Shown: positions 1 through 64,000, counted from the first letter of the stretch. The stretch: DNA of 64,000 bases from an uncultured virus (IMG/VR IMGVR_UViG_3300045125_000080) (IMGVR_UViG_3300045125_000080); one strand, 5' to 3'. Numbers and translations: made by a program. The notes: generated from the sequence alone by a model not told the origin.

Positions 1-309
1 GACTAAGGGGGTGGGTTTTTTGGGGTTGCGGTTTATTCTTACCCCGTACCCCTGTTTTTTTGCCTGTTAGTGATGTTGGCGGGAAGTTGTCGCGCAGGTT
101 GGCGGGTTGGGGGTTCGGTCTTGTCCCTTGGTTGATCCTTTGCCTTGTTTGGTTAGGTGTGGCGGGAAGTCCTCAGCACTCAGTCATGCGCGTGAGGGGT
201 TTATATGTGTATATGGTGCTGATGTGTTCGGGGAAGATGTGGTCCTCTCTCTTTCCCTTTGTTCTTGTGTAGGGGGGAAGTCCTCGCAGTCATAGGGGCA
301 AACCCTTAT

Positions 310-323
310 AGTTGTCAATTAAC
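310..323. promoter_or_regulatory. AGTTGTCAATTAAC element, copy 1 of 4 (others at 1394, 4861, 8674)
   Basis: Identical 14-mer read at four positions. Imperfect palindrome, TTGACA on the - strand. Three copies lie just upstream of early gene starts. Confidence 0.6.
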
Positions 324-367
324 AATTTTTGTGACGATCATTAACACCTTTTTAACTTTTGGGGTTG

Positions 368-375
368 TAGGTTTG
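368..375 (+). promoter_or_regulatory. Bacteroidetes-type -7 promoter box TAGGTTTG
   Basis: Matches TAnnTTTG, about 20 nt before the A-rich leader AAACTTAAAACAATG of the first early gene. Confidence 0.5.
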
Positions 376-1047
376 TGGAACAAAACTTAAAACAATGAAT
401 AAACAAGAAGCACTGCAAAAGTATTGCCTCATTCCTGAAACATTCGGAAATCATTTGAGCAATTAAAAAAAGATATTTTAAAAAGCTGCAGGCCCACATT
501 GGTTACGGCTAGTTCGGATTATTTTGAAAGACAAAAAAAACGGATATTCACTATTTTACACTGAAAACGCCAGAAATTTTGAAAATCACAAAGGAATCCG
601 AGTGGGTTTTATGTTACCGTATCATTGCGGCTTTATCACATTAACAGATAAGGAAGAAAATGAGTTAATAAATTATTTAGAAAACTTTAACACTCATTTC
701 ACGGCGCGGACAGTCCTCCGCGCTATTTTTACCACACAAACACAAACAAAAAAACCCCAATACAATGACAAAGCAACACTATCAGCCGACAAAAGCAGAA
801 GTTAGCGCAGTTTTAGACCTATGAACTTTTACGACTGGTTACAAATTCAACACCAGTGCAAAGAAGATGAAGAAGAACTAACACCCGCGCAACGCAGAAA
901 GCAACACAGGGCAATAAAAACGCGTACAAAGGCGCACTAATGATCAAAAAAGCCTTACAAGATTTCCAATTTTGCTAATTTTTAACACCTATTTTATGGC
1001 GCGGGGGAAGCCTCGCGCCATTTTTACCGCCACAAAAACTCCTATTT

Positions 1048-1373
1048 ATGACACACACACAAGTTAAAACGATTGACGTCAACGGTAAAGAATGGTTTGA
1101 CAAGGTAAATGTGAATATTTACTTTTCCATTGTTACCTTTAATTTGACAGATGCAATCATGAACAATTTACTTTGCCTTTCCAGTACGGATATGGCGTTT
1201 TATATTCAAGAGGCACTAAAACAACTGAGAGAAAAGGGTACACTACAACACACACCGCTGAACTGCAGATCAATATGAATAATTTAGAAATGGACAGCAA
1301 AAGAATTGTAAAAAAAGAGAGCTTAAAAGTATGGGGGGAAGTCATAAGACACCCCCGCACCTTCACGTTTTAA
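1048..1373 (+). CDS. early hypothetical protein (frameshifted)
   Basis: ORFs 1048..1278 and 1173..1373 overlap and read as one protein (IDVNGKEWFDKVN...MPFQYGYG). Preceded by a hairpin and an A/C-rich leader. Confidence 0.45.
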
Positions 1374-4249: not shown

Positions 4250-5638
4250 CAAAAGATTGGCTAAATTATTTTGGTGCGGGGAAGTCCTGCCACTATTTTT
4301 ACACCACACAAAACAAAACACAATGACACAAGAAACAATACTAAAAATTCAAGAGGCAACTAAATTCAAGTATGGCGCTGATGATAAGATTGATTATGTT
4401 CGAATGGTACGGAATTATGCTGATCTAGCAGGGCATACACCACCTTTGAAGATATGGATATAGTAAGACCACGCTGAATGTGCGTCTTTCCGATAATTAA
4501 TGAAGATTGAAGATAACGAAGGCGCGGGGAAATTATGGGGTTTATAGTGCCTCATTTACCAACAAAACCCCAAATTAAAACCTTATTTATGGCAACTTTC
4601 AGTTTTTACATTGATCAAAAATGTAGGTCTGGCAAACGGGAAGATTTGATATTCAAGCAGAAACCTACGAACAGGCAAAAGAATTGGCTAAAAAATCAAA
4701 ATTTGATATTGATGATATGGAGTGGGAAACCTTATGGGAAACCCTTACATGACATTGAATTTGATGATAACAATGGGCAACCAACAATAGAGATTTATAG
4801 TGATGATAACGCGGGGAACTTGTGTATCCAATAAACCTTTATGATATTTTTAACACCATTAGTTGTCAATTAACTACAATTTACCTACCTTGCTGATGAA
4901 AAACATTAACCCCGCGTTTCTCCTTTATGGTTTTATACGGGTAATTTTTAAAAAATATAAACTATGATAACAGAAAGACAAATGATTCATCTTGCCCTAT
5001 TATTTGATATTGTGTGCGGGGAAGATACCACTAACACTTTACTTGCTGATTGGCTCGTTGATAACAAAATTCAAATTATCTAACCCACAACTTCCCCTAA
5101 CACTATGAAAACAACCTACCCCCTAACACCCCACAAAACAAAATGGATTGGGAACAAGCACGCAAAAAGAACAACGGATCAATGGTTTAACCACATTAGT
5201 ACCCAGAACATTGATTATGACGCATTAGAAAGGCAGTTATTTGCCCTTCGTAAAAGATTGGCTAATTGTAAGGAAGAACACTATTACCCGCTTAAAACAG
5301 AAGGTAATTAACATACAACGGCTACTCGCCACAAGACCGAAACAAAATGAAGGCTGGAATAACTATTTAGCAAAATAAAATCTAAACCTATGCAAAATCA
5401 TACCTTATCTTATGTATTTACCGTAAAGCTAAGTATTTGATGTTAGAAACTCGAAGTATAGAAGTATCTGACTGAGGCTTATTGGAATGAATTGATACAA
5501 AAGACTTTGTTACTGTATGACAATGATTGAAAGATTAAAGACAAATGCATTATAAATGAATTGCAATAGCCTGCAAGAATTTATGAGATAGATAATCATA
5601 ATTTGATAAATTTAAAAAAACAAATAAAACACAAACCT

Positions 5639-6220
5639 ATGCAAACCACTAATTTATTCGCCAAGACAACCACAAAGACAAGCACACCTAAAAAAGCCGA
5701 CAAAAAGGTATTACCCGCCCTAAATTTAGGGGATAAGGTAAAAGGTATGCTGACCTCAAAAACCAGATTGATGCCCTTACAGGGGAATTAAAGATGATTG
5801 AGGGGGATATTAAACTAACAGGCAAGGAACTCTTTTTAGATCAATACAAGAAAGAAAAGAGGACACCCGATAACTTTAAAATACAAGATGAAACGGGGAG
5901 TAGTTGCCTGTTTATTGTAATGGATAAATATACTTCTGTTGATGATGATAAGGCAGAACTACTGCGCAATTATGACGGATTGTTGGGGAAAATGTGGTAT
6001 ACAAATTCAATACCGAACTCGTTGAAAAGTATGGCGCAATTCTTATCCGACCTTATCACTTCTTCCCCGACATTGAAGAACAAGACAAAGGTAACTTAAT
6101 CAGCGGGGAAAAGACCTACTCAGTAGCAAAGGAAGTATTGACCGCTTATTGCAATTCTCAAACCCAGAACAGGTATTGGAACTTATTAACCCTATTTGCT
6201 CACTTAAAAAATAATTATTA
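5639..6220 (+). CDS. early hypothetical protein (frameshifted)
   Basis: ORFs 5603..5791, 5794..6099 and 5994..6287 join into one plausible protein (MQTTNLFAK...). Confidence 0.45.
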
Positions 6221-6256
6221 TGTCTTGGGAAGTCCTCGCAGACCTGCCTCTGTGAT

Positions 6257-6457
6257 ATGGCAGTATCGTACAACAAAGAACGCATAACACAAATTGAGGA
6301 AGGACACGGAAGGCACGACCTATCCGGCACGTACTACACCCTCAACTATGTTAAGGTATATTTTGGCGATGAACCGATTGACATTACCAAAATGCTAACC
6401 AAACAAATGGAAGATTATATCTTTCAACAAATAAAAGATATGGAAAATGACCTATAA
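6257..6457 (+). CDS. hypothetical protein
   Basis: Intact 66-aa ORF whose stop overlaps the ligase start (TAATG). Confidence 0.55.
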   Translation: MAVSYNKERITQIEEGHGRHDLSGTYYTLNYVKVYFGDEPIDITKMLTKQMEDYIFQQIKDMENDL

Positions 6458-7101
6458 TGAATTTAAGTATCTGTACCCGCCTCGCCCTCAGTACAAGATA
6501 CCGCCCGTATGATCTTGACCAGTACGAAGGGGAATTTGTAGCACAACCAAAGTACAATGGAACTGCCTGTATGGTATTTACTAACGGGGACGAACTGAAA
6601 GTATTTAACAGGCACAAGCTACCCCTTGCAAAGTATTCGCCCTTTATTCAGTTTAGAGGACTTGCAAAGAGTAATAAATGGGTAGTGTACTGCGGGGAAT
6701 ATCTTAACAAAGGACAAAAGGGAGAGGCGGGAGAAGTAGAACGGGATAAGTTTATTATCTGGGATTTGCTTGTGTATGACGGGGAATATCTGATAGGGCA
6801 AACTCTTATTGATAGGGTTAAGATTGTAGACCAGAACTTCCCCTGCATACCCTCAAAAGTATCGGAGAAAGGACTTGAAATATACGACTACCTCTGTTGT
6901 ACAGACCTTGAAGGTATCTATAAAGCACCCCTGTATGGCGCGGGTTTTGAGTACCTCTATAAAGACCTTGTTAAAACACCCCTGTACGAAGGGATAGTCC
7001 TTAAAAAGCAGAACGCAAAACTATCGTATGGCTTTCAAGAGAAGAACAACTCTGAATGGCAACTAAAATGTAGAAAAAGTAATGCCTTATACACCTTCTA
7101 A
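6457..7101 (+). CDS. ATP-dependent DNA/RNA ligase-like nucleotidyltransferase (adenylation domain only)
   Basis: Motif I QPKYNG (KxD/NG), motif III CGE, motif IIIa FIIWDLL, motif IV EGIVLK, motif V QLKCR. Confidence 0.75.
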   Translation: MNLSICTRLALSTRYRPYDLDQYEGEFVAQPKYNGTACMVFTNGDELKVFNRHKLPLAKYSPFIQFRGLAKSNKWVVYCGEYLNKGQKGEAGEVERDKFIIWDLLVYDGEYLIGQTLIDRVKIVDQNFPCIPSKVSEKGLEIYDYLCCTDLEGIYKAPLYGAGFEYLYKDLVKTPLYEGIVLKKQNAKLSYGFQEKNNSEWQLKCRKSNALYTF

Positions 7102-7111
7102 ATTAAAAACT

Positions 7112-7297
7112 ATGCTAATTGAACTAACAAAAGACAGAGCAGAATACTTCTGCCAAGAACTAAATGTATGGAGTGTTGAAGCTAAAATCGTGGAGTCCAC
7201 CGAACATTGGGCAACGATTGAGATTGATGATGACCACGATCCGGAAGATATAATTGTCTATGCCTTTAATATGGGGGTATCATTTGGTAAACTATGA
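7112..7297 (+). CDS. hypothetical protein
   Basis: Acidic small ORF (MLIELTKDRAEY...) downstream of the ligase. Confidence 0.5.
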   Translation: MLIELTKDRAEYFCQELNVWSVEAKIVESTEHWATIEIDDDHDPEDIIVYAFNMGVSFGKL

Positions 7298-7391
7298 GGT
7301 ATGTAGTATTCGCCCTTACCAATATGATAATCCTTTTATATTGGGTATATCTTATATCGGAAATCTATTTAATTATTAAAAACTAAACATT

Positions 7392-7943
7392 ATGAATTAC
7401 ACAATCTATTTAGACGATACGGCAGTCAAGTATCTAACCAATGAGCTGGATAAGGATAATGTCTCTTATGCCATAACAAAAGAAAAGTTAATGGAAGGGG
7501 AGATAAATTGTATATCCTTTGAGGATAAACCCTATGTACTTAACTCTGTATTTATTGCAGGGGTAGCTTATACGAAAGGGGTAGCGCAAAGACAAGAGGC
7601 TGACCTTGTTATTAAAAAGGCACTATCAGAACTTCCCAGACGCAAAGTAACTATCAAAGAAAATAATAGTATATCTGGAGACGGCTTTTATTCAGTAGAA
7701 ACTGCCGAAGGATTATTTACAAAGATTTTTAGTTTTAAGTTGGGGGAAGATGATCCACAGAGTATTTGGAACAAAGAAAAGAATTTGGCTGAAGCTACTG
7801 AGTACGCCAAAAAAATAGAAACCTACCAAAACGAACAAAAAACCATTTACGAAACCCCTGAAATGACCTTGTTTAAATTTATATTAGTATTACTACTTAA
7901 TTGTACGATTTTATCTATTGTTAATTCAATGATTAAAAGATGA
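7392..7943 (+). CDS. hypothetical protein
   Basis: 183-aa ORF after an A-rich leader. Confidence 0.55.
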   Translation: MNYTIYLDDTAVKYLTNELDKDNVSYAITKEKLMEGEINCISFEDKPYVLNSVFIAGVAYTKGVAQRQEADLVIKKALSELPRRKVTIKENNSISGDGFYSVETAEGLFTKIFSFKLGEDDPQSIWNKEKNLAEATEYAKKIETYQNEQKTIYETPEMTLFKFILVLLLNCTILSIVNSMIKR

Positions 7944-8959
7944 CACTCAAGCAAAAACTATATCATTATTTATTCTGCGTACCCCTTGCGTATTCTATAT
8001 TGGACGGCGATTGAGGTCGGATTTTTTTCTATAACATTTATAAATTTTTAAAAATGAAAAAGAAATGTAAGACGTGCGGGGAGACAAAACCTCTCAATGA
8101 ATTTAAAAGGAACGTAACAATGGGACATTACCATAACCATTGTCTGCCCTGTTTCCAAAAGAGGCAGAGTGAGAAGTATCAAGAAAGAGAAGGGAAAAGA
8201 AGAAGATGAATGATATGTTTGGATTTTTTATTTGGAGAGAAATGACATTTATTTTAACGTGGCTTGCGGTAGCTATGCTTACCTCTATTATTAACTGGGT
8301 ATTTAAACTATTAACCAATGACAACAATTAAAAAGGTCTTGATTAACTATATCAAGATGAAACCAGACAAGTTTGCTATATGGATCAAGGATAACGCAGA
8401 AGCACTCCTACAAATGGAAAGAGAGGAGATTGTTAATGCCTTTAATAGAGGACAAAAAGAAGAATGTCGGGGAAATCGTGGCGAAGGGTGAGCTATATTA
8501 CAAGTAATAACCAAGACAAATGATGAGATGAACTGATTGATGAAATTATACAGAAATGGGCAAGCGTACCCTTTGCAGAAATGGAAAGATTGGTTAAATT
8601 CTTTGAGAAATAAATATTCTAAAAGTGGAACCTCGCTCAATAAAGTCCGGCTTCCATTTCTCGTCCATACCCAAGTTGTCAATTAACTCGTGGCACGCAA
8701 GGATATTGTATTGGAAGTAGTCTAATTTGTCATAACCAAAGTGTTCGCAGGTATCCTCTATTCGGCAGATGAGTGGTCTTGTTTCGTATATTTTGCACTT
8801 GTTATCTTCTCCTAAGTTTTCACAGACGCCTTCTTTATGGGTGTAGGGAAGTAATAGGTGTGTCGGATCGTCCCTGACAATAATACTATCTGCATTGTGA
8901 TATTACTCTACAACAAGCACCGCAACCAGTACAAGGGAATGTCATCTCTTTAATTCATT

Positions 8960-9398
8960 TATTGGTCTTAACTCGCTATGCGGAACAAAGTAGCAGACGG
9001 GTAAGGTCTTTGTATGTTTCCACTTCTCTTGCTTTGCGTCTTCTGCCCTTATCCAACCTTTTATTTCGTAGGTGGGACAACTTGCCCGTAACAGAAATAA
9101 TAATACCCTTATCGTCTGGTCTGACCTTCAGATCTTCCCGAGGCGACCACCTAATCTCAAAGTTAGTATTTACTATATCCTCAACGTGGAAGGTATTTAC
9201 CCCAAACCCCCAGTATATCCCAAGATATTTACATACGGCAAGCTCTGCGTGTGCGCTTTCAATATGTCCACCCCATAATACCATTACGCTTAAATCCGGA
9301 AACCTTGCTTGCCTACCCTTAAATGAAGCCTCTGCATTTCGTCTTGATCCAATGTAAGTGGCTACGAGAACCTCGTTAGCATTTAATTCTACTATCAT
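8960..9398 (-). CDS. hypothetical phage protein
   Basis: Part of ORF 8976..9479. Likely start MIVELNANE at ~9398, with a TAATTTTG box upstream. Confidence 0.55.
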
Positions 9399-9462
9399 TT
9401 TGTTTGTGTTTAAACCAAAATTACAAAAGGCATATACACGCGACAAGAACTTTTTTGTACAT

Positions 9463-9723
9463 CTATGACAAGTCCACATAACGGAAGTTCATCTTCCAAA
9501 GAAATCTTGCCGTCTTACTGCTTTCCTTTCTCACTTTTGTTTCAGACCAGTCTGGGTGTTTAAGATGGAAGTGTTCGTGCAGAAGGTAAAGGAGATATCG
9601 ATACCCTGTTAAGCGAATGTCTATTTCTAATTTATTCTGGTCAGTATACGCAATCCCATAAGCTTGTTCTTTGCCCAGCTTTTTATGAATGACTCTATGC
9701 GGATTGGTTATCTTCGGTGGCAT
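9463..9723 (-). CDS. small protein with HExxH (LHEHFH) zincin-like motif
   Basis: Intact 86-aa ORF containing YLLHEHFH. Confidence 0.5.
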   Translation of the reverse strand: MPPKITNPHRVIHKKLGKEQAYGIAYTDQNKLEIDIRLTGYRYLLYLLHEHFHLKHPDWSETKVRKESSKTARFLWKMNFRYVDLS

Positions 9724-9930
9724 CGTAACAATTAGTTTCGTATATCTCTTTTATTCCGGTGTGTATTATTTTTAATGACATCTGACGTATCTCCCTAATT
9801 AATTGCTTCTCATCTTCCCCCAACATAACAAAATCAAAGTCTTCTAATGCAGACAAGGCACTAAAACAGGCTGTTATGTCTTCGTGGGGGAAAGGTTGAT
9901 AGGGATATTATCGTCAAAGCAGGTCTTCCA

Positions 9931-10933
9931 TTAGTGCAATTTACCATCAATTATAATATAATTTTTGACACTGAAAGCTGCCATCTTTTTCAACTATGAC
10001 GTGGGCAAATCCGTGTTGTGAATTTGACACTAGTGGAGAATAGTCGGGCTTAATGTTGGCATAAGTGCAGCCTACAGACCAAGCTGCTACGTACGTTTGC
10101 CCTCCATATCTACTTTCAGCGTGAAACGAGGTGCTGATGTAGGTGCCCTACAATCACGTTTTGTTTTGCCTTCATATAAGCATCCGCGTGCCGGAGAAAC
10201 GGGGGTAAATAATACCCTTAAAAATGTGGTGGCCGTGGGTAATAGCAAGCTTCCCTGCCTTAACCAGTATTCTATCGTCTATTAAGTGTACCCTTTCCTC
10301 GTTAAGCTTGTAATCTTTCCTCTAAGTTGAAGTACGGATCATCCCATATTTCCTGAGCCTTCTGTAAAAAGATATCTTCTCATATCTCTGATCGTGATTA
10401 CCTTTTATCCAGTATATCTCTTGGGTAGGGAAAATACTGCCTGCAGTACACGAAGAAATTGCTTAGCCGCGTCAAATTCCTGTCTTACACTTCTCTTGTG
10501 AGAAATCCGTCTCAAATCTACTGATGACGGCAAAGTCCAGCAAGTCGTCCGTTTATTACAATGGTATTAATTTTTTCCTCTACTCCGTACTCTAAGGCTA
10601 CGGTTAATAGCATCTATATCGTGGTAGGGTATGTGTAGGTCTGATATTAGGAGTATGTTGTTGCACGTCTTGGGAAGTTGTAGTGGTTCCCGTTTCTCCT
10701 GATAGCTCTCAGGGAGATTGTAGGGGTTTTTAGGACGTTCTGGCATAGTGGTGGGTAACTTTATATCGATTATTCTTTTCTTGCCTTCTATGCCCCTTAA
10801 AACGTCTCTGCAATCCTCTACATCCTTAAAGGTCAGCTTCTCCTTTGCGTACATAATCCGGGCCAGCTTGCAGAGTAGGCATTTCCATTCCGTACTCGTT
10901 GCTGTATTTTCGGGCTATGTCTGTTTTGCTCAC
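9931..10933 (-). CDS. calcineurin-like metallophosphoesterase (frameshifted)
   Basis: ILLISDLHIPYHD (DxH motif). KGNHD is read on the - strand near 10390-10405. Confidence 0.75.
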
Positions 10934-10976
10934 AAGTTTGACGTACTTTATTCCGTTGTCTATGAAGGTGTCTCCC

Positions 10977-11456
10977 TTATTCCACTTTTCTAATAGTTGC
11001 TTTGTTGTGTAGCCTAGTGTTTTTTGGATGTGGGGGAAGTCCTTGAACTTCCAGTCCGCTCCCCGACTCCCAGCCGTTGTCCTTAAAGATGTGCGATGAC
11101 CTCAAACCAGTCCGGCTTCCCGTCCTTGTCCATAGTCCTTTACTAACGTCCCACGTAGCCGTTCTGCGACTCCATAATACAAAAGTCAATGGCCAGCGCA
11201 AAATTGTGGTAACTCTGACCGCCTCTTGCCTTGGTAACGATCCCGATGCCGTTTGCCGTCCCCGTCAAAGAGCTTTGTCTCTGCCTAACTTGTAAAGCTC
11301 GTCTTGCTCCTCAAAGGTGCGTAGGGTATGCGTGAAACGGCAATAAACTCCGTTAGTGAGTGCAGGCGCAATCTTCTCTACATAAATCTTCATCACTTCT
11401 TCCCTGACCTTCGGATGCAATAATTTTATCCTTGATATCGTGAGCTTATCAATCAT
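10977..11456 (-). CDS. endolysin, peptidase M15 (L-Ala-D-Glu peptidase-like; frameshifted)
   Basis: LHPKVRE...TLRTFEEQDELYKLGR, then GGQSYHNFALAIDF and DFPHIQ in shifted frames. Confidence 0.8.
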
Positions 11457-12796: not shown

Positions 12797-12823
12797 GGGA
12801 AGTCTTGACTGCCAAGACTTCCC
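12797..12823. repeat. perfect inverted repeat GGGAAGTCTTG-actgc-CAAGACTTCCC (paired genome-wide motif; possible terminator)
   Basis: 11-bp arms read directly. Intergenic, just after a - strand stop codon. Confidence 0.7.
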
Positions 12824-45823: not shown

Positions 45824-45828
45824 ATTTT

Positions 45829-48616: not shown

Positions 48617-50688
48617 CTAATACCCCGCTATTTGGGTAAATTTTACGAGCGGTGTTTGGGGAGGAGCTGGCTTATAAATTGGTTCAAGACCGCCAACAAG
48701 AGCAATCATAGCGCTTACACTTCGGTCAAATGCAGTACGCTTATTGGGATCAAAATTCTTGAGGTCTTCAAGCAGGTCGATGAAATATATCTTTTCCGAG
48801 TAATGCTCGATATAGCTAATCATTGTATCGTTCTGTTTGGTCATAGCAAAGTCGGTGACGGGGAATCCGTAATGCCTTTCTACATCCTTTTTCTCTTGGT
48901 TGGATCTATTGCGTTGAGGGGAAAACGTGCCAGATAGCCAAGCTTACCCCTATTCTTAAAATAGGTGTAGTAATCGTCTGATACAAACTCGTAATATACC
49001 TGATAACCAAGGTATTCTGCGGCAAGCATTATCTGGTTATGCAAGTCCTCTTTCTCGCTTGGCCGCCCGTAAAGATGCCCTGTAAATAGGCCCGTATTTT
49101 CCGGATCACGGATATCGTACTTTACAAAAACCCAAGCCGAAGCCTTTGAGCCGTATCTTTTACCGCCTTGCGAGTTAGAGTATCCGTCCACCCCAATTAC
49201 TCCAATATCTGTTCTAGATGGCTTTTTTAATCCCGTGTCGTAGTAGTGCTTATTTGTTTCCCCTTTAAGGTTTAGGTCGCCTACAAACTGCCAGCAAAAT
49301 GACTCTTCATTACTGCTTATATCTCGCCACCTAACGAGCTGCGTCATCTCGTCTCTGTAGAAGAGAACCTTTCTTTTATAGACGTCCTGCTCTTTTAATC
49401 TTTCTATCTGGTCGTTAATCTTAACCACGTTGAAGATGCAGTCAGCGTTTGCCGACATAAAGGCTTCAACCTCCGTACAGGGGTTCATACGGATTTCTTC
49501 CTCTAAGTCATCACCAGTTCTTCCCTCACGCCTTTTTAATATATATGCCTTTGCACCAAGTTCAATGTCTTCTTCGCTAATCTCCGATATGGTGTTTCCT
49601 TCTTCGTCTTTTACTACCCACTTATCTATAAGGTATTGCTTTTGTTCGGGTGTCGGGGAAGATGTGACGCTAAACCCATACTTATCAATAAAACCCTCAT
49701 ACCCGTCATAGGCAGGAGCAAAATACCTTACGAGGCGGTTTATCGTTGGGGTTCTTTTATTGAGATCCGCGTTTTCCCACAACAACTTAAACTCAGCACC
49801 TCCCTTAGTCATCTTATTACAAGTAGAAGGCATTTCCACAAAACCGACTCTCTTAACACCCTTTACAAGCGTCTTGGATATAATCGCAAATAGCTGAGAA
49901 GCTTGAACCTCCTTTTCTAATTTACCAAACTCATCCAATAGTAACCTACTCATACGACCTCGGTCATAGGCGTTTAGAACAGGAGCGCGGTAGTTGATTT
50001 TAGACCTATTACCTTCATCCTCTTTTTGACCAGCCGCACTACCTTCTTTTACGCTTGCCGCCTTTTGAGCAAAGACAAGTTCTGTTACAGTATCCTCTCT
50101 ATTTAACTGCTTGGGCTTTAGGAAAGCTGGAAGCTGTCTATAACCATAGGCGACCATCTCCGTAAAAGTAGAACGCCCATCCTCGTTAGACTTAGATACA
50201 AGACCGCAGTTAGAATTTTTAAAGAATATTGCCTCGTAGACAAGGTTTGATGTTGCTTGGGAAGACGCACCCTCACGGCGCTTTTTACTTCTTATGATTC
50301 CCAAACTCCACGACACATTTTCCCAATGCTCCAAGAAAGTAAAATATCTCCTATCGGTATCTCGATATTCTGGACGTGAGCCATCCTCTAGCGTCCACCA
50401 TTGAAGATAGAAGTAATACTTCTTGGTAATGTAATAAGGGTTGCCATTTATGTAAATCCAGAGACCTTTCTTACATCTTTGAAGTTCTCTAATTGCGAAC
50501 TCCTCTTGTTCTTCTGTAAGTATTAAATCTCCAGCCTTTGTATATTGAACCTTATCAAAAAATTCGGGCAGTTCTTCCCGAACCCACATCTGTTCTTCTT
50601 TTGGTTTATTCCAATTAAGAATTTGTTTATGCGGGGGAAGTTCTGGTAGCCTACAATTTGTCCCGTATATTATTTCGGTATTGGGCAT
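48617..50688 (-). CDS. terL: terminase large subunit (frameshift near 48880)
   Basis: Walker A-like KKRREGAS, Walker B LLLDEFGK, motif III PST, RNase H GVDGY, C-terminal FDRSVS. Confidence 0.85.
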
Positions 50689-51092: not shown

Positions 51093-51094
51093 AG

Positions 51095-52435: not shown

Positions 52436-52751
52436 TCATTTTTTTATTTTTATTGCGTTCAGAAATATTTTTAGCCTTTGCTTTAGCATCTGCCTTTGAT
52501 GATGCACCCCACGCTCTCAAGGAAAGAAGTAAACGTGTTGGTTTTCCGTCTTTATATTCTGGCCCCGGCATACCGCCCATACGAGCAAGGAAACTTGCTC
52601 TACGAGGATTATCTCCAGACTTTACAGGAGCTTTTAAGGTTCCGCCTGTTTGAGCTTTATACGAATCTCTTCCTTTCTGATTCAAGCCTCCAGATTTTGC
52701 CTTCCCTTCGCTACGAGACCAAGCGGCTGTTTTAAATCTAAGTTTTGGCAT
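52436..52751 (-). CDS. small basic phage protein (DUF6321-like)
   Basis: GGLNQKGR...TLKAPVKSGDNPRRASFLARMGG...SLRAWG. TAACTTTG box at 52767-52774. Confidence 0.6.
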
Positions 52752-52799
52752 ACGTTATGCTTTACTCAAAGTTAAAGTTTTTTGCCACCAAATAAAATG

Positions 52800-53298
52800 A
52801 ATACCGATTTTCCCCGACATCTAAGCCGCTTTCTATAACCTCAAAATAGGGCAGAAAAATAGGCGTGGCCTGTAAAGTTTAACGCTCCCCACAGAATGTT
52901 TGCTTGAACCAAAACATAAAGTCCTCGTATTTTGTATCGTGGAAATGCTCTGGGTTTTCCTTGTTTGGATAGTAGTTTCCGTCTGGTAGGTATAAAATAA
53001 AATATCCTCCTTGTTTTAGGAGCTTTGACCATTCAAGGATAGCTCTAAAGTGATCAGGGAGATGTTCTAAGACGTGGGAGCTGAAGCAGCAGTCAAAGGC
53101 TTCTACTAATTCAGGGTATTTTGTATCAAGGTCATATAATGAAGGGGTTAGTATGCTTACGTGGGGGAAGTTACGGCCATCAATCCCCACAACGCCGTCT
53201 TTAACTGGCTCGTCTCCGCAACCGATATCCACGACTTCCCCGACCAAATACTTCTCTATCTTGGGTAATATTTTTTACTTTCTGATGCCATTTGTCAT
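52800..53298 (-). CDS. class I SAM-dependent methyltransferase
   Basis: VVDIGCG, FSSHVLEHL, LLKQGG. Confidence 0.8.
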
Positions 53299-53377
53299 AG
53301 CTTATGATTGTATGTTTCATCGTAATATTCTTCTCCACAATCTTTGAATTGAGGGTTACCATCGCAATAAGCATCTA

Positions 53378-53575
53378 TTATTTGTTCTCGTTCCATTTCG
53401 TAAGCCTTAAAAATATACCAGCTATTTTATTTAAAATCTCATTTGGCATACTTTCAAATAAAGGATTTAAATTATATGCTAAAAATTCCACTGCGGTTTG
53501 ATGTTTATACAATCCATCTTTAGAATCTGCTTCCATAATATCTATAAGTATTTCTTTTTGTTTTTCTTTGTTCAT
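53378..53575 (-). CDS. hypothetical protein
   Basis: Intact ORF starting at a repeat junction. Confidence 0.5.
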   Translation of the reverse strand: MNKEKQKEILIDIMEADSKDGLYKHQTAVEFLAYNLNPLFESMPNEILNKIAGIFLRLTKWNENK

Positions 53576-53692
53576 AACTTTTCTATTTAAATTGGTTACA
53601 AATTATAACCAGTTATTTAATAAATAAATCACAAAATAAAATATAAGCATATAATAAACAAAATAATAATAATACAAAAAGCATTAACATTC

Positions 53693-53905
53693 TCATAGCT
53701 TTTCTATTTCTTGTTTATCAAAATAATATAAGTTTAATTCATTCTGACAATGATATAAGTAATCTGCGTGCATCTCATCTGCAACAACTAAACCATTTAT
53801 TCCCACATCAACGCATACAGGACATTTACAAGACGCCTCTGTTCTAAAAACTCTTTGCTCTATCCTATCAATAAACCATTGTACATTATGCTTTTCGTGT
53901 TTCAC
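53693..53905 (-). CDS. mini-gene with CxCxxC motif, ending KQEIEKL
   Basis: GTG start inside one junction, stop inside the next. Confidence 0.55.
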   Translation of the reverse strand: MKHEKHNVQWFIDRIEQRVFRTEASCKCPVCVDVGINGLVVADEMHADYLYHCQNELNLYYFDKQEIEKL

Positions 53906-54040
53906 AGCTTTTCTATTTCTTGTTAAAAATATTTCTCCAATAGAATCGTTCATAGTTTCTATAAAACTCAATACCACATATAGTGTACAGAAAAAACTCT
54001 TTAATCCTATACATACTTACATTTATGTATTCTAATAATC

Positions 54041-54261
54041 TCATAGCTTTTCTATTTCTTGTTTTACTTCTTTGAAGCACATTTATCACAATAATCAATT
54101 CCTTTATTTGTATCATTGCCATCCCAATAACAGTGCATCGCTTTTTTACACTCTGGACATCTATACATTGGTTTTGATTTTGTAACTGTATTCCATACTG
54201 ATTTCCAAAATGATGGGCAATCAAATAGTTTGTGTTTCCATTTTTTTATAGAGTTTTTCAT
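54041..54261 (-). CDS. mini-gene with Cys pairs (CPEC...CDKC)
   Basis: MKNSIKKWKHKLFDCPSFW..., bounded by junction repeats. Confidence 0.55.
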
Positions 54262-55702
54262 AGCTTTTCTATTTCGTTTATTGCGTTTAGGACTTGACTT
54301 GTTGTGTATTTTGCGCAAGGGGGAAGTTCTGAGTCAATATAACAAGGCTCACTTTCCACACCAATTTGCTCGATGCCAACAAAATGGTTTCATACAGATT
54401 GGGTTGTTAATGGAATGATTTGTAAGGATAACTTTGTCGGATAGGTCAGGATGCACCACTTCTGGGTTCGTATTGCCAAAGAAAAGTATTGACGGCACAC
54501 CAAATGCTGATGCTACGTGGCTCACGCCTGAATCAATGCCTATAAATAGGTCAGCACTTCCCACTACATAACAAAGAAAGTTTTCGTTTTGTGTATTAAT
54601 GTAAATAGCGTTCTTTATTAAGCGGTACGTTTCTTTTCCTACCTGAAATACCGAATACCCTTTTGCTTGCAGGCTCGCTACCACATTTTCCCAGTCCACC
54701 CCAAATACTCCTCTACCAGACTGTCTAATGCCCTCTAAGTGTATAATACAGCGTCTTTTGAAAAAGCCTTGTACTCTCAATAATATCGAAAACCTACAGA
54801 TAGTTTAGGATTTTTCATTTCTCCATCCTTAATACCGCAGAACTGATAATAAGTTAGTAGTCTATTCTGTTTAGGAACAGACTCGTAGGCCATATCTAGG
54901 TTATGATAAATGGCATTATGCAGTATTCTTCTGTTTATTGTTTTATAAAATGTACCGGGAAGTCGTGATTAACGAAAAGCATATAAAACTGCTCAAGCGT
55001 ATCTAAGACAACCCTATAACCCTTTATTATGAAAATATCTTAAAACAGGTTCAACTAAAATAACATCACCCATTGACGCCATTCTTTTAATTACAACAGT
55101 TTGCTGATACGGCTTATGAAATTTTCCGTGAAATCCAAATGTATCGTAAATAGGCGCTCTAAGTTCGTAAGACAAACCTATCTGCTAAATCCTCTGGGGC
55201 GTATGTTATTTTATAAAACTTTATTAAGGTAATCTCTATAAAGCCTGCCAATTGCTTGGTCTTCCGGATCGTGTAGCAACAATAAAATCATCAAGTAGTA
55301 AGTGCTGATTGAAGTTTTTTAGACCTAATGGAAAATCCTCCATTACCGACATTTTTGCCATCTGGATAAGTCCAAGGACGCTCCTATGTAATCGTAATGC
55401 AAAATTCTGGCAGCCACGACTTCCCGTTCAGCACATACCCATCTGCTTGAATAACTAATACAAAGTCTGTATCAAAATACTTGTATAGCTCTTTAATCAT
55501 AAAGTGAGCTGTACTCTTCCTTTGACCTAATAGTAGGAATATTTACTACCTCAATTCCCTCAAATTCAAAAGGCTTGTCTGTAATAAACTTAACGGCAGC
55601 AAAGTCACATTCAGCCATACTCTTTCGTATAGCTGCTACTGCTTCTCCGTGATTTACGCAGTCTACGCAGATAAGAGTTACATTACTTAGACTTGTTTTC
55701 AT
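54258..55702 (-). CDS. two-domain glycosyltransferase: DUF5672-like N-terminus plus GT9 heptosyltransferase-like C-terminus (frameshifted)
   Basis: IQADGYVL and VGNGGFSIRSKKL; RMASMGDVILVEP; LFIGIDSGVSHVASAFGVPSILFFG. Confidence 0.75.
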
Positions 55703-57341: not shown

Positions 57342-57557
57342 TTAATCAATGTATTTGTTTGTGATAAAATAGGATACGAGCTGTGTGGTGTTCTTGCAAT
57401 TAAACTTTGCCCTTACAAGTTGTAGCTTGTAGGCAAATGTATTTTTGTTAAGACCGACCTTTTCAGCTACCCCTTTTGCTTTCTCGCCGCTCGCCAAGAG
57501 GCGAACCCAAAGGATTTCTTCCTCTGTCGGAATGGGCGGTGTGTAGTTTTCTTCCAT
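57342..57557 (-). CDS. LuxR-family HTH transcriptional regulator
   Basis: PTEEEILWVRLLASGEKAKGVAEKVGLNKNT...KFNCKNTTQLV. Confidence 0.75.
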   Translation of the reverse strand: MEENYTPPIPTEEEILWVRLLASGEKAKGVAEKVGLNKNTFAYKLQLVRAKFNCKNTTQLVSYFITNKYID

Positions 57558-57561
57558 ACTG

Positions 57562-57680: not shown

Positions 57681-58172
57681 ATGGGTATTGAACAGATAAG
57701 AGAATTAAAGAAACAGGCAGGACTTCCCAAGACGCCTAAAAAATATACTATCCCCAAGAAGTCAAAGAAGAAACTTAAAGAAGAAAAGGAAGAAAGAAAA
57801 GAAAGAGCAGGTGATGATACACAGCTTGTAAAATGGTACAAGCATTGTCAAAGAGAAATGAGTGGTAATTGTTCAGAGTGTGGAAAGCCGACCAATACTA
57901 AAGTATACGAGTTGGCCATTCATTCTATTTGCCACTTATTAGCAAAAAGAAAAACAGTAGCTCCAAGTGTAGCGTGTCACGCTCATTAACTGGATAGAGC
58001 TGTGTCCTGATTGTCACTATAAGTTTGATAATAGTGCGTGGGAAGATATAGCGAAGTGGGGATGCTGGCCGGAGATACAAGATAGATTGATTCAGGTTTA
58101 TCCAGCGATTGCAGAGGATGAGCTTCGTCACTTCCCCGACATCGTACTAAACTATATGAATGAAAACTCTTG
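57681..58172 (+). CDS. HNH-like zinc-binding nuclease (NinG/Ref-like; frameshifted)
   Basis: CSECGK...ICHLLAKR...NWIELCPDCHYKFD. Confidence 0.55.
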
Positions 58173-58244
58173 ACATTATAGCAACGATAGTCGGCATTAT
58201 CTTTTTATATTTGGTATATAAAGCATTTGTTTATTCATTCTTTG

Positions 58245-58658
58245 ATGATAAATAATTATGATACGAAAAAACTGGTCTGGGTAAATGGATGCTTTGATAT
58301 ACTGCATCCGGGCCACTTTGAACTTTTTAGATTTGCCTCTGAACTTGGCAGTCTACACGTTGGAATAGACGCTGACGTGCGAATTAGAAAGATGAAGGGG
58401 CCGGGCCGACCAGTTAATGACGAAGGGTTTAGAGCCGATATGCTATCTTCCCTGACATTCGTAGAAAAAGTTTACATCTTTGAAACAGATCAGGATTTAA
58501 GAGCAATAACCAAAAGACTCAAGCCTGATATAATGGTTATAGGTGAAGAATATAAAGACAAGACTATTATAGGAGCAGAAAATGTAAAAGAGATTATATT
58601 CTTTAAAAAGACATTAGACTCTACAACTGAAATTATTAATAAGATTAAGAATGGATAA
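58245..58658 (+). CDS. cytidylyltransferase-family nucleotidyltransferase (HldC / RfaE domain II-like)
   Basis: NGCFDILHPGH, KGPGRPVN, KPDIMVIGEEY, STTEII. Confidence 0.85.
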   Translation: MINNYDTKKLVWVNGCFDILHPGHFELFRFASELGSLHVGIDADVRIRKMKGPGRPVNDEGFRADMLSSLTFVEKVYIFETDQDLRAITKRLKPDIMVIGEEYKDKTIIGAENVKEIIFFKKTLDSTTEIINKIKNG

Positions 58659-59016
58659 AAAGCCTATTTGCACAGACGGTTGCCATATACAAAAAGGCTG
58701 GGGCAAAGAAATCGTTATCATAAACAACGAGCTTTATTGTGGTAAGATTCTTGTATTTAAGTCTGGCTATCAATTTTCGATGCACTTCCATATTATCAAA
58801 CAAGAAACGTGGTATGTAAATAAAGGCAAGTTTCAATTTAGATGGATTAATACCGAAGATGCAAGCATACATTCTATGGAATTGAATGTCGGGGAAGTCG
58901 TGACTATCCCTCGCGGTATGCCACATCAATTAGAAGCACTTGAAGATGGAGAAATATTTGAAATATCAACACAACACTTTGATTCAGACTCGTACCGCGT
59001 ATGGAAAGGAAATTAA
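58651..59016 (+). CDS. cupin-fold sugar isomerase-like protein
   Basis: KGWGKE, SMHFH..KQETWYV, IPRGMPHQL, EISTQHFDSDSYRV. Confidence 0.75.
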   Translation: MDKKPICTDGCHIQKGWGKEIVIINNELYCGKILVFKSGYQFSMHFHIIKQETWYVNKGKFQFRWINTEDASIHSMELNVGEVVTIPRGMPHQLEALEDGEIFEISTQHFDSDSYRVWKGN

Positions 59017-59192
59017 CCCCTAGCTTAAAGGCTAAAGACCTTACAGTAAGAGAACACATAGCAATTAACCTGTTGCCTATGATGCTTGCTACTGCTTCAG
59101 ACCTTGATGATCCAAAGGATGTCTGTGATGAGGCTATATCTATTGCTAACCTTTTAATTGAGAGGCTAAATGATGAAGAAAATATACGTTGA
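59001..59192 (+). CDS. hypothetical protein
   Basis: LTVREHIAI...AISIANLLIERLN. Confidence 0.5.
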   Translation: MERKLTPSLKAKDLTVREHIAINLLPMMLATASDLDDPKDVCDEAISIANLLIERLNDEENIR

Positions 59193-59463
59193 TATTGACG
59201 GGACTATTTGTAATACTGTTGAGGGAAAATATGAGGATAGCACCCCTATTCAGGAACACATAGATAAAATTAATAATATGTATGACGCTGGTTGTTACAT
59301 AGTTTACTATACAGCCAGAGGTCAGCGTAGCGGTAAAGACTATTGGATGCTTACAAACGACCAGCTTGAAAAATGGGGTTGTAAGTTTCATAAGCTTAAT
59401 ATGGGTAAGCCTGATTATGATTTAATGATTTGTGATAAAACTAAACGCATCGAAGAAATATGA
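59170..59463 (+). CDS. small HAD-family phosphatase
   Basis: YVDIDGTIC, YTARG, GKP.YDL.ICDK. Confidence 0.8.
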   Translation: MMKKIYVDIDGTICNTVEGKYEDSTPIQEHIDKINNMYDAGCYIVYYTARGQRSGKDYWMLTNDQLEKWGCKFHKLNMGKPDYDLMICDKTKRIEEI

Positions 59464-60209
59464 ACTTCTTAATTATTGGGGAAAAATGTAAAGATGTATT
59501 TGTGTACGGGGAAGTCACAAGGCTCAGTCCTGAAGCTCCTGTGCCTGTATTCAATCCTACTCGTAAAGTGGAAAATTTAGGAATGGCTGCCAATGTTTAT
59601 AATAACTTATTTAATCTTATAGAAAAGAAAGCATCTTTAATCGGTCATTTTTCCAATGATAATATCATAAAAACAAGATACGTTGACGATAAGTCAAACC
59701 ATTACTTTTTACGCATAGACGAAAACGACAAAACAGAGAGTATCAGGATTTCCCCCAACCTAACAAAAGTCATCCATAGTTCAGATTGCATTATTATATC
59801 AGACTACGATAAAGGTTTTATATCACTAAACGATATTTGGTCAATTTGCCAAGAAGCAAAAGAAAGTGCAGTAATTTTCTTAGACACAAAGAAGAAGTTA
59901 ACACCTGTCATCTTTGATCAGGTTGATTTCGTAAAATTCAACGAATCAGAATACAATCTCAATATTAAAAATTCAGAAGAATTTTCAAATAAGATAATAG
60001 TAACGAAAGGAGGAAATGGAGCATACTACGATGGCGAGGACTTCCCCAGCGAGAAGAAATTAACCATTGATGTATCAGGAGCAGGAGATACGTTTTTAGC
60101 CGCATTAGCTTTCTATTTTATGACTTCCCGCGACATAAAAATAGCCATCCAAGAAGCCAATAAAGCAGCTTGCAAAGTAGTATCAGAAAGAGGAGTTTCG
60201 GTTATCTAA
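59460..60209 (+). CDS. PfkB-family heptose-7-phosphate kinase (HldA / RfaE domain I-like)
   Basis: RLSPEAPVPV, GMAANV, ISDYDKG, DVSGAGDTF. Confidence 0.85.
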   Translation: MNFLIIGEKCKDVFVYGEVTRLSPEAPVPVFNPTRKVENLGMAANVYNNLFNLIEKKASLIGHFSNDNIIKTRYVDDKSNHYFLRIDENDKTESIRISPNLTKVIHSSDCIIISDYDKGFISLNDIWSICQEAKESAVIFLDTKKKLTPVIFDQVDFVKFNESEYNLNIKNSEEFSNKIIVTKGGNGAYYDGEDFPSEKKLTIDVSGAGDTFLAALAFYFMTSRDIKIAIQEANKAACKVVSERGVSVI

Positions 60210-61113: not shown

Positions 61114-61157
61114 AATACTACGAAATTTTTGAAGGTGAAATTTTTTAAAAACTGAAA

Positions 61158-63062
61158 ATGTACTACGACCAACTTACAAAACTTGGAATTAGACTTCGGA
61201 AAAGAAGTGGGCAAGAAAAAACAACTTGCCCAAATTGCTCTGCTGGGCGGAAAAAGAAAACTGATCCTTGCCTTTCGTAAACATTTCTCAAGGCGATTAC
61301 AACTGCCACAACTGCGGCTGGATGGGGAATGTGAGAACTTTTGTCAAGAAAGAAAATTTTAAAAAATACGAAAAACCAAGTCAAGAAATGCTCAAAAACA
61401 TTGAGCTGAATGATAGGATAAAGTTGTTTTTGAAGGTCGGGGAATAAGTGAGGCTACGTTGCAAAAATTCTTTATTCACGGCAAGGAAGAGTGGATGCCA
61501 CAATCTCAGAAAAAACAACGCTGCATCGTCTTCCCTACATACGCGACAATGAAATCGTAAACGCAAAATATCGCGATGGGAAGAAAGGGTTCAAACTTGT
61601 GAAGGATGCTGAATTGATTTTTTCGGGATGCAAACACTTCAGGGTAGAAGATGTGCAATCATCGTGGAAGGTGAAATTGACGCGCTTTCAGCATACGAGG
61701 TTGGTTTTGGTCGGGACTACGAACCGATTTGCAACGAGGATGGGGAAGTTGTGGAACACGAACTTGGCAGATTTGCGGTTCTTTCGGTTCCAAACGGGGC
61801 AAGTAAGGGGAACCAACGGATGGAGTATTTGGACAACTGCGCCGAGTACTTGGAAACGGTTGAAGAGTTCATCATCGCAACCGACAACGATGCGCCCGGT
61901 CAAGCCCTTCGGGATGAGTTAATCCGCCGTTTAGGCGTGGAAAAGTGCCGAACTGTCAGGTGGGAAATCCTAAAATCGCACCAGACGCACGGAAAACGGC
62001 CCAAAAATCGCACCAAAAGATTTTAATGAGGTATTGTGCCACTTTGGAAAAGAGGCCCTTAAATCGCTTGTATTGAGTTCGCAGGAAGTTCCGGTGGATG
62101 GGATATTTTATGTCGAAGATATTTTTTCAACGATGTTGGAGAACTTTGAAAGGGGTGTTCAGATAGCCCCTCCGACAAGAATTGATGTGCTTGATGAGTA
62201 CTTTAGGTGGAAGAAAGGAGATATAAATTTATGCACCGGATATGCTAATGCTGGTAAGTCTACTTTTATGCTTCAGTTGATGCTTGTTAAGAGTATTTGG
62301 GATGGATGGAAATGGGCGGTATTTAGTCCAGAAAATTTTCCTGCTTATGATTTTTATGATGATTTAGTAGAGATGTATGTTGGCAAGTGGAAAACGGATA
62401 TGAAAAAGAAGAGTATGTAGAAGCCTGTGAATTTATTGGTCAGCATATATTCTTTGTGTATCCTGAAAACGAACACGATATAGAATCAGTACATAATAAG
62501 TTTCGTTATTTGATTTTAAAGAAAGGATTAGATGGTGTAATGATTGATCCATTTAATCAACTTGATTCAATGCAAAAGGCTTATCAAAGAGAAGACCAAT
62601 ATTTATCAAGTATATTAAAGGATATAAAAAGATTTGCATTACTAAATGGCATCTGTTATAACATAATAGCTCACCCAAAAAGTCCAAGTTATAGAGAAGA
62701 TAAGTCTTTGCCTGTAGCGGATATGTATGATTTAGCTGGTGGTGCTATGTGGGGTAATAAAATTGATAACATACTTTCTTATTATAGACCAAGATTTCAC
62801 GAAGACAAGAATAGTAAAGAAGTAGAGATATGGGTTCAAAAAATTAAAAGAAAAAGAACAGGCGGTCAGCTCGGTCATTGTAATTTAATTCTTGATTGGA
62901 GAACGAAAAGATTTTGTCATCCTGTATCAGGTCAAAGATTATTGTGATATTAAAAGAGCAAGAGTTGTCACATCTTCCCACAACCCAGATAACATAACAC
63001 AAGGAGAGATATCTAATAATTGGCTACCTTATAAGGATGATAGTACTGAAGCACCTTTTTAA
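61158..63062 (+). CDS. T7 gp4/Twinkle-like primase-helicase (frameshifted)
   Basis: Zn finger CPNC...CHNC; TOPRIM IVEGEIDALS and ATDNDAPG; Walker A GYANAGKS; IDPFN; IIAHP. Confidence 0.85.
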
Positions 63063-63097
63063 TGTAGGGGAAGATATAATACACAAACACTAACCAA

Positions 63098-63563
63098 TGA
63101 TAATTCACAAAACACACACGCACCGCTAAGACTTCCCCAACTACTAATTAAACCCAAGCTATTAGCTTACAGAGTAGGCTTTACAGAATCTTGTAGGTAT
63201 GATTTAGGAATGAGAGACCAAGGAGATATTAATAAACTATTTGGAGTGGGATATTTTCCCTCACACCACGAAAACTCTGTACGAGTAGGATGGAACTATG
63301 ATATAGTATCAGGAAGAATAAACATATTTGCTTATTGGTATGTAGGGGGAAAACGTGACTGGCAATACCTAAGAAGCGTAGACATAGGAGTAATGTGTTA
63401 TTTTAAAATGTATATTGACGATGATATGCATAGATTAGATATTGCAGGAAGAAACTACCGAGTAGATGTTCATAGCACGCCTATCTGCTATTTATTAAGA
63501 CCATACTTTGGTGGAAATAGAACCGCACCACACGATATTGTAATTGATATAAAAAAAGTATAA
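63098..63563 (+). CDS. hypothetical protein
   Basis: ORF 63210..63563 with a probable upstream start. Confidence 0.5.
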
Positions 63564-63793
63564 TGATTAAAACATTAAGAAGGAATGTTACTGAAGAAAA
63601 AGTAGAACGGACTAAAAAATTAATTAAACTTGGACGTTCATTAAGAGAGGCTGCAAAAGAAGTGGGTATTAGTTATTATTCTGCTTGGCATATTGCTAAG
63701 GGAAGTTATGACAATGAAATTAAACTTGACAGCATCTTTAAGAAAGAAGAAAGAAATAATTATTTTACGTGGAAAAACTTTGAGGTATTTTAA
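63563..63793 (+). CDS. small HTH DNA-binding protein
   Basis: GRSLREAAKEVGISYYSAWHI. Confidence 0.6.
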   Translation: MIKTLRRNVTEEKVERTKKLIKLGRSLREAAKEVGISYYSAWHIAKGSYDNEIKLDSIFKKEERNNYFTWKNFEVF

Positions 63794-64000
63794 TGGCAAT
63801 AGTAAGAAACATACAAAACAATAATCTATACCGTTATCTTGGATGATAATAAATATCGAAACATTATGACGGGAGTAGAAGGAGAGATACCAGAAGAAAT
63901 GGCTCGTAAGATATTTAAGATTAACCTAGAGATGACGGAGCTGTGCGAGAACTTCCCCAACGTAGAAAAATTAATATTTGCATTAAAGCTTAAAATGGAT
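63793..64000 (+). CDS. hypothetical protein (runs off the window)
   Basis: Open frame MAIVRNIQNNNLYRYLG... to the end of the window. Confidence 0.5.

Follow-up and report, generated by a model that had tools for sequence, protein, structure and literature searches.

The window analysed here, the whole 64,000-nucleotide stretch of an uncultured virus (IMG/VR IMGVR_UViG_3300045125_000080), carries on both strands, and for the most part inside genes, numerous copies of a short word with the core GGGAAG. Comparison with relatives shows this word to behave as a cis-acting, lineage-specific DNA recognition word under purifying selection. Across its copies it shows as an asymmetric element of about 30 bp, comprised of a T-rich tract followed by K K, G, GGGAA(G), W, N N and T G R, and alignments with homologous genes show that point substitutions, often silent ones, wrote it into genes that already existed. 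Its copies in the window are summarized thus:

76..63960, both strands (73 on the plus, 58 on the minus): field of 131 sites with the GGGAAG core, mean spacing 491 bp, sparse at 20-36 kb.

A program count of 73 copies of GGGAAG and 58 of CTTCCC, 131 in sum, bears out an earlier note on this sequence, which had counted about 70 and 50 by hand; the four examples it quoted likewise lie where it had placed them. The count expected for both strands is 16.8, 24.7, 33.0 and 55.6 under Markov models of order 0, 1, 2 and 3 respectively. GGGAAG is by far the top-ranked 6-mer of the window (z 17), and the 7-mer GGGAAGT is observed 69 times against 7.9 expected. Within the core only the sixth letter is variable (GGGAA followed by G and less often by C, T or A). 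The flanks show preferences for G/T at -5 and -4, G at -1 (45%), T/A at +6, T at +9 (68%), G at +10 (57%) and R at +11, preceded by a T-rich tract from -17 to -9. This tract is present in the sense and antisense subsets alike, and since the flank signal holds in both it is not a mere effect of strand composition. The flank conservation claimed earlier is thus real but looser than the consensus then given. Scoring by the flanks alone ranks GGGAAG first in motif-bearing genomes, followed by GGGAAC, GGGAAT and GGGAAA, and recovers nothing in G002, a sister phage without the word. Patterns of the extended motif with 14 specified bases match only about 1% of the real sites, and an exact-pattern scan of genome collections was therefore dropped. 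The position matrix lacks dyad symmetry, and the motif-bearing strand is G/T-rich.

The sites of the window are on average 491 bp apart, with a coefficient of variation (CV) of 1.10 (0.99+-0.08 for random placement) and a largest gap of 2,710 bp. Across genomes the CV ranges from 0.88 to 1.17 against 0.99 for random placement, indicating Poisson-like rather than periodic spacing; the figure of one site per 0.5 kb in the earlier note therefore holds as a mean but not as a period, and the periodicity it proposed to look for is not seen. The orientation of successive sites is near random, and they occur in all three codon phases and in both senses, as had been noticed from the translations. A promoter role was discarded, since only 6 of 61 upstream regions (60 nt) contain a site against about 6.7 expected from density, and both orientations occur; most of the 131 copies of this asymmetric site lie away from promoters. 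Similarly, a hairpin or single-stranded structure was rejected as the general form of the motif, because there is no covariation between columns and the minimum free energy (-2.63) is close to that of random genome windows (-2.38) and shuffled sites (-2.42); only some of the intergenic copies sit in hairpins. The major capsid gene contains 0-1 sites.

The window is an error-rich assembly: open reading frames (ORFs) of at least 150 aa cover 34% of it as opposed to 59-86% in relatives, and many single-base indels, half of them at homopolymers (e.g. at 47202, 47302, 48445, 51130, 52096-52139, 62026-62034 and 62387-62420), split the primase-helicase, the portal and many other genes. In four independent runs the contigs share one reading where the window departs from them by these single-base indels (12 listed and 86 more). 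None of the alternative genetic codes helps to repair the short ORFs, whose cause lies in the indel errors. For this reason the gene-level tests were done on clean relatives, with genes called by a greedy longest-ORF rule. In seven such relatives, falling into two groups of motif-bearing phages (A and B), the coding sequences were shuffled among synonymous codons, preserving the protein sequence and codon usage. Group A coding sequences contain 88, 84 and 91 sites against shuffle means of 29, 23 and 28, and those of group B 134, 137, 104 and 93 against 34, 40, 27 and 22; no shuffle attained the observed count in any of the seven, whereas the sister phage shows no excess (shuffle mean 14, observed 15). 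The sites divide between sense and antisense as 36/52, 39/45 and 42/49 for group A and as 78/56, 78/59, 62/42 and 54/39 for group B. Between genomes at 74-80% nucleotide identity, 57-74% of the sites are positionally conserved, as compared to 20-31% of all 6-mers and 25-32% of 6-mers of the same composition, and conservation is raised from -19 to +12 around the core. The genes for the portal and for the large terminase subunit offer a closer view:

48880..50688, minus strand: large terminase subunit, with 5 motif sites inside; used as the query for finding relatives.

Five of the eight terminase and portal sites fall at residues identical to those of the motif-free sister, which uses other codons for them (RED, REG, SSQ, ASQ and GED; for example, AGG GAA G in a motif-bearing phage versus AGA GAA G in the sister). 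None of the eight falls in an alignment gap and the differences from the sister are point changes, which rules out a small inserted repeat of the MITE or REP kind. Taken together, the excess that persists under the codon-preserving shuffle (84-137 observed versus 22-40 expected), the silent changes at conserved residues and the positional conservation uphold the proposal of the earlier note that selection acts on the DNA rather than on the protein.

The excess is not confined to the window. It is 3-6-fold in 24 of 24 contigs of this phage group in IMG/VR, which are independently assembled but, as motif-bearing relatives, are not independent samples. They include 19 contigs with a terminase at least 79% identical (ratios 3.0-5.4) and five further contigs found via the primase, namely group B, with 150, 143, 105, 97 and 54 sites against 34, 31, 22, 22 and 11 for the reversed word; the 150 sites of G411 are split into 76 and 74 between the strands. 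The motif of group B has the same core and the T at +6 and +9, with weaker outer flanks. Groups A and B come out as sisters in the tree of the terminase, where the motif-bearing genomes constitute a single clade. The next branch is G002, whose terminase is 70-71% identical and which has 16 sites versus 19 for a control word. There is no excess of the word in ten more distant relatives, and the ratios are near 1 in five phages with equally similar primases but other virion modules (G416, G417, G418, G419 and G420); a cultured Elemovirus also has no comparable genome-wide word. G002 shows a mildly over-represented word of its own, CAATAG (45 versus 17 expected, on both strands), but its flanks are not conserved, and it was rejected as a sister 'dialect' of the GGGAAG word. 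In an even sample of 401 Bacteroidota genomes, GGGGAAGT reaches 0.07 per kb at most and is mostly equal to or below the reversed control, as against about 2 per kb for the GGGAAG core in the phages. Parts of the sequence turn up in 8 studies, whose runs bear the labels freshwater, lake, aquatic or ballast water; the 24 runs listed all consist of contigs, and the word excess recurs in contigs of 4 runs from 4 studies. Because the enrichment recurs in independent assemblies and in these runs, it is not the run-specific basecalling artefact that the earlier note had raised as a possible undoing of its claim. The search among related phages and candidate hosts that it recommended thus indicates that the word is a trait of one phage lineage and not of the sampled hosts, and its reader is therefore probably encoded by that lineage.

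Consistent with this, one small protein of the lineage presents itself as a candidate reader:

57345..57560, minus strand: LuxR/GerE-type helix-turn-helix (HTH) protein of 72 aa, the first gene of the long leftward (late) operon; an error-free orthologue lies at L042:4933-5151.

Its domain matches Pfam PF00196 above the cut-off (E 3e-6). The AlphaFold model (pLDDT 87) has four helices, and Foldseek searches with it recover the DNA-binding domains of GerE, VraR, LiaR and NarL (TM 0.78-0.82, E about 0.01); on the strength of these three results we are confident in predicting a GerE-type four-helix domain. With a profile of the protein, all 10 motif-bearing genomes give a match (E 1e-42 to 1e-47) and none of six motif-free relatives does so at E<=10, while all 15 IMG/VR loci encoding it are on motif-bearing contigs. 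Only five of the 96 proteins of G411 are exclusive to motif-bearing genomes: a 74-aa LuxR/GerE HTH protein, a 479-aa glycosyltransferase, and three proteins of 89, 92 and 495 aa without a known family; of these, the HTH protein alone is predicted to have a DNA-binding fold. Groups A and B share an unchanged recognition helix in this protein (NTFAY.L...RAKF), the whole proteins being 56-58% identical. The HTH family comprises 49 clusters, and its members P0163-P0171 have altered recognition helices. A 48%-identical member of the family with a changed recognition helix is encoded on a contig (JGI contig L253) without an excess of GGGAAG (7 versus 4.9) or of GGGAAT (15 versus 10.7), and no more distant relatives were found in IMG/VR. 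DosR, which belongs to the same fold class, reads GGGACT/TGTCCC via its recognition helix (PMC13486717). In group B the surplus of sites over expectation is about equal in sense and antisense (53 versus 47 in G411), which fits a reader indifferent to gene direction. Together these observations lead us to propose, tentatively and at somewhat less than even confidence, that the dispersed sites are binding sites of this lineage-specific protein. The suggestion of the earlier note to try the HTH and the small basic proteins finds partial backing, in that the HTH protein co-occurs with the motif; the small basic DUF6321 protein belongs to a widespread module and is an unlikely reader. This very basic protein of 104 aa (window 52332-52751, minus strand; G003 L042:469-783) is 94-100% identical across the clade, and its domain recurs, 70-82% identical, in unrelated phage proteins by the hundred, where it is joined to many different large partners (with Zeta_toxin, Peptidase_S78_2 or DUF5872), an unusually frozen module that was rejected as the reader on this account.

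Several considerations weigh against the HTH protein. Its co-occurrence with the word is confounded by descent, since the motif-bearing genomes form one terminase clade and its gene is the first of the late module; the four other exclusive proteins, including the glycosyltransferase, share its pattern of presence and absence; and the six motif-free genomes are 44-85% complete, such that its absence from them is not proven. Moreover, GerE/LuxR proteins usually bind palindromic sites as dimers, whereas the sites here are mostly single and asymmetric, with 3-4 paired per genome, and a 30-bp footprint is large for a single 72-aa domain. Group A has more antisense than sense sites even though the latter are cheaper to encode, which a strand-blind binder would not predict. 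Finally, there is no evident need of a phage for about 140 intragenic binding sites.

Some copies of the word are arranged in local clusters, hairpins or convergent pairs, as follows:

76..290, plus strand: G/T-rich stretch without coding function, in which four sites share one strand (cores at 81, 164, 231 and 275), all pointing inward, upstream of the first small early genes.
990..1030, plus strand: GC-rich hairpin followed by a T-run (terminator-like), with a motif core in loop and stem; read by eye.
About 1325-1365 and about 2835-2875: similar terminator-like hairpins, each directly upstream of a small early gene; read by eye.
12797..12823, no strand assigned: convergent pair GGGAAG-N15-CTTCCC, its spacing repeated at 40405-40431 and 44555-44581.
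13222-13244, no strand assigned: convergent pair with N11.

A similar inward-facing cluster lies at a contig end of the relative G411 (70.6 kb, rated 100% complete). Sites of the window's early region favor the gene strand 10:1. The three GGGAAG-N15-CTTCCC pairs compare with about 0.07 expected at one fixed spacing, as calculated from the density of sites, and in G003 such pairs are located between genes. Convergent pairs 17-21 bp apart number only 1-4 per genome, most sites being single.

Under the proposed role of the HTH protein, the word would be read as duplex DNA, with the protein occupying about 130-150 sites along the phage chromosome together with the dense inward-facing cluster beside the early genes. 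The dispersed sites could mark, coat or roadblock the phage DNA, or titrate the protein during genome replication, in which case its free level would track the genome copy number; more speculatively, the terminal cluster might place early transcription under its control. All such roles, be it marking, roadblock, titration or early shut-off at the terminal cluster, are at present speculation. A more specific and more doubtful version, to which we grant only a minor share of probability, is a self-marking code in which about 140 sites, set by silent codon choice over the entire chromosome, would enable the phage's own minimal 72-aa GerE-type protein to coat phage DNA or to gauge it: for example, the protein could shut off early promoters at the terminal cluster and be titrated by newly replicated genomes, so that gene timing follows copy number.

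The closest phage precedent is the stoperator system, the L5/Bxb1 repressor sites of the Cluster A mycobacteriophages, which PMC6550527 presents as short asymmetric sites repeated genome-wide, mostly off promoters and specific to a lineage. As described there, stoperators co-evolve with a phage HTH protein and some copies are true operators at an early promoter, whereas here the HTH protein only co-occurs with the word (10 of 10 motif-bearing genomes, none of six motif-free ones). The same source gives at most about 30 stoperators of 13 bp per genome, mainly in one orientation to transcription and in temperate phages; in contrast, the present phages have 131-150 sites, mostly intragenic and in both orientations (sense 36-78, antisense 39-59), and neither an integrase nor a prophage copy was seen. 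Thus, general Pfam/PHROG scans turned up no integrase, and a search for relatives of the terminase in one genome each of 185,579 species found none; the IMG/VR label of G001 is 'provirus'. A likeness to the LuxR/GerE/NarL regulators lies in the fold of the candidate reader and in the GGGAC(T) hexamer that the family member DosR reads with its recognition helix (PMC13486717). However, the boxes of these regulators are paired half-sites at promoters, with few to dozens per genome, unlike the single asymmetric sites found here throughout coding DNA.

The earlier note listed a coating, packaging or ejection protein, a modification site or T5-like nicks as possible explanations without choosing among them; nicks of the T5 type fit poorly with 55-76 sites on each of both strands. 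The genes that bear on this and on replication are:

57681..58149, plus strand: HNH-type nuclease-like gene, with frameshifts in this assembly; its distribution does not follow that of the motif.
6457..7101, plus strand: early ATP-dependent DNA ligase domain protein, relevant to nicks and to replication.
61158..63059, plus strand: T7 gp4-type primase-helicase with zinc ribbon, Toprim and DnaB-like domains, interrupted here by frameshifts; likewise does not follow the motif.

In the nick reading, a phage nuclease acting late in infection would introduce programmed single-strand nicks with 3'-OH/5'-P ends at the word, as in T5, phiKMV and tf, and the early ligase of the phage would seal them. 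Such nick sites of T5, phiKMV-like and tf/LUZ24-like phages share with the word a conserved, asymmetric consensus at conserved positions in related phages, and their function is enigmatic, according to PMC3517423; the present phages do encode an HNH-type nuclease and an early ATP-dependent ligase. Yet the nick sites recorded there are on one strand only and number 4-14, whereas here there are 131-150, roughly ten times as many, on both strands, including the convergent pairs 17-21 bp apart. Ligases are, moreover, common in phages with replication genes of their own. The HNH protein is 52% identical in the motif-free G416 and G420 but only 28% in the motif-bearing G411, and it was hence rejected as the reader. 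On balance, we regard nicking as unlikely.

A replisome signal, with the gp4-type primase-helicase starting or being loaded at the words on either template strand, about one per kb per strand, would accommodate sites that lie on both strands independently of transcription. It also draws on the presence of a zinc-ribbon/Toprim/DnaB primase-helicase in all motif-bearing genomes (86-95% conserved within the lineage where the window is in frame) and on a per-strand density near the length of Okazaki fragments. However, word and primase do not co-vary, and the primase was rejected as reader on this account: its tree joins group A with the motif-free G416 and G420 (support 0.996), group B shares 69-77% identity in the zinc-binding domain with motif-free phages but only 60-64% with group A, and overall the motif-free phages have equally similar primases (64-72%). 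Further, known primase sites are trinucleotides, the preferred sites in T7 are at most 1.6-fold enriched (GGGTC, 94 versus 57), and the Poisson-like spacing means that the density is not visibly enforced. This explanation is accordingly a rather improbable one. Independently of the word, the replication module (primase-helicase and HNH-like gene) and the virion module are seen to differ in their histories (G003, G411, G416-G420); the group A primase clusters with those of phages whose terminase is only about 25% identical, pointing to module exchange among freshwater Bacteroidota phages.

In a packaging or ejection signal, to which we assign a similarly low probability, the terminal cluster would be the recognition site of the terminase or of DNA entry, and the dispersed copies would help the same machine to recognise or handle phage DNA. 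Inward-facing clusters do occur at the early-gene end, at 76-290 of the window and at the very end of the G411 contig, and repeated protein-binding sites beside the genome end are typical of cos and pac regions. But these contig ends may differ from the physical ends of the genome, same-strand clusters of at least 4 sites are also found at many internal places, protein family scans identified no small terminase subunit, and we know of no packaging system that uses about 140 dispersed sites on both strands.

The word might instead be read by the host, either shielding phage DNA, on entry or during replication, from a host helicase-nuclease, as Chi does, or exploiting host DNA handling in the manner of uptake sequences (USS/DUS). 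It resembles these in being over-represented, intragenic and on both strands, with an extended AT-rich flank, a G/T-rich word-bearing strand, inverted pairs that double as intergenic hairpins, and lineage specificity. USS/DUS and Chi are, however, properties of bacterial chromosomes read by the uptake or RecBCD/AddAB machinery of the host; here the word is specific to the phages and missing from a sister phage, and its core is about 30 times denser than the maximum of GGGGAAGT in the 401 sampled Bacteroidota genomes, even if the true host may lie outside that sample. A 30-bp footprint is also long for Chi, and the terminal cluster is oriented opposite to what RecBCD-type logic would predict, should that end enter first. 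We thus view a host-read word as very unlikely.

An equally faint prospect is that the word is the target of a sequence-specific DNA modification, such as a sugar adduct supplied by the ADP-heptose pathway and the glycosyltransferase, with its density mattering for protection or packaging. In its favor, the 479-aa glycosyltransferase (DUF5672 and GT9) is among the five proteins exclusive to motif-bearing genomes, a full heptose-nucleotide pathway and two methyltransferases are encoded, and indels between the window and G001 are slightly commoner near the core. Nevertheless, modification alone would not explain the enrichment and positional retention of the sites, the enzymes resemble those acting on sugars and polysaccharides rather than on DNA, and the surplus of indels falls in G-runs, where such errors are expected anyway. 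The nucleotide-heptose pathway is in itself apparently complete, with a PfkB-type kinase, a cytidylyltransferase-like enzyme, GmhA/GmhB-like proteins and a cupin (window 58227-60209, plus strand, and 52879-54780, minus strand; G003 L042:807-3290 and 6013-7959), and is encoded with the DUF5672+GT9 heptosyltransferase-like protein and the two small methyltransferases.

That the word has no function and is an artefact of sequencing, of codon or amino-acid usage or of a small inserted repeat, as the error-rich assembly of the window might have suggested, is refuted by its excess in 24 independent contigs and four runs from four studies, its persistence under synonymous shuffles, the 0 of 8 tested sites in alignment gaps, and the recovery of the core from the flanks alone in motif-bearing genomes but not in G002. 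The probability left after these readings falls to some other reader.

The window itself is a tailed-phage genome with a GC content of 38.6%. It encodes the large terminase, portal, virion proteins, GroES, the T7 gp4-type primase-helicase, the ADP-heptose pathway and the early ATP-dependent ligase. Its terminase is distantly related (28.6% identity) to those of Flavobacterium and Cellulophaga podophages. Shine-Dalgarno sequences are mostly missing, with a similar core in only 3 of 61 genes, and the upstream regions are A-rich at -13 to -11, a combination which we take to be a mark of Bacteroidota; the host is thus probably a member of this phylum. Besides the ligase domain protein, the early region (window 6457-7101, plus strand; G001 L036:1442-1909 and 8080-8337) encodes a RadC-like JAB protein and an IrrE/M78-peptidase-like fragment, and none of the group's genomes showed a DNA polymerase. 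The virion module includes giant proteins of 3,177, 2,324 and 2,441 aa almost without family matches (G411 45035-54568, plus strand; G003 4960-11934 and 13063-20388, minus strand), and a weak CrAss_Ring_2 match in a 210-aa protein (L041:7935-8567, minus strand) hints at a distant tie to crAss-like podophages. Diverged tandem units of about 300-470 nt occur in the region of a large tail-fibre-like gene (window 15760-20840, minus strand), with families of 51-207 nt in up to 10 copies. Two small ORFs (about 85-87 aa; 44612-44875 and 50821-51090) are cleanly missing from related-strain contigs of 2-4 runs; the joints skip 262-271 nt, and both ORFs adjoin motif sites (44555/44581 and 50843).

Each of the genome-wide words Chi, the uptake sequences and KOPS has led to the machine by which entire chromosomes are read, while the phage genome-wide words described so far are, to our knowledge, only sparse and of a single orientation, as in stoperators and nick sites. 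In agreement with the earlier note, which recognised no described element with this consensus, our searches of the published literature found no description of the GGGAAG word or of such a phage-wide motif. A widespread freshwater phage group (24 contigs; runs of 8 studies) bears a measurable coding cost for about 2 sites per kb on both strands, from which it follows that the reader of the word must count in fitness. The sister phages that lack the word provide a sharp natural contrast, and the list of candidate readers is short and testable. Words of this kind also skew codon usage as well as host prediction from k-mers, and can serve as markers of a phage lineage. Were the self-marking code borne out, it would represent a phage-encoded chromatin or a titration timer of a kind not described before.

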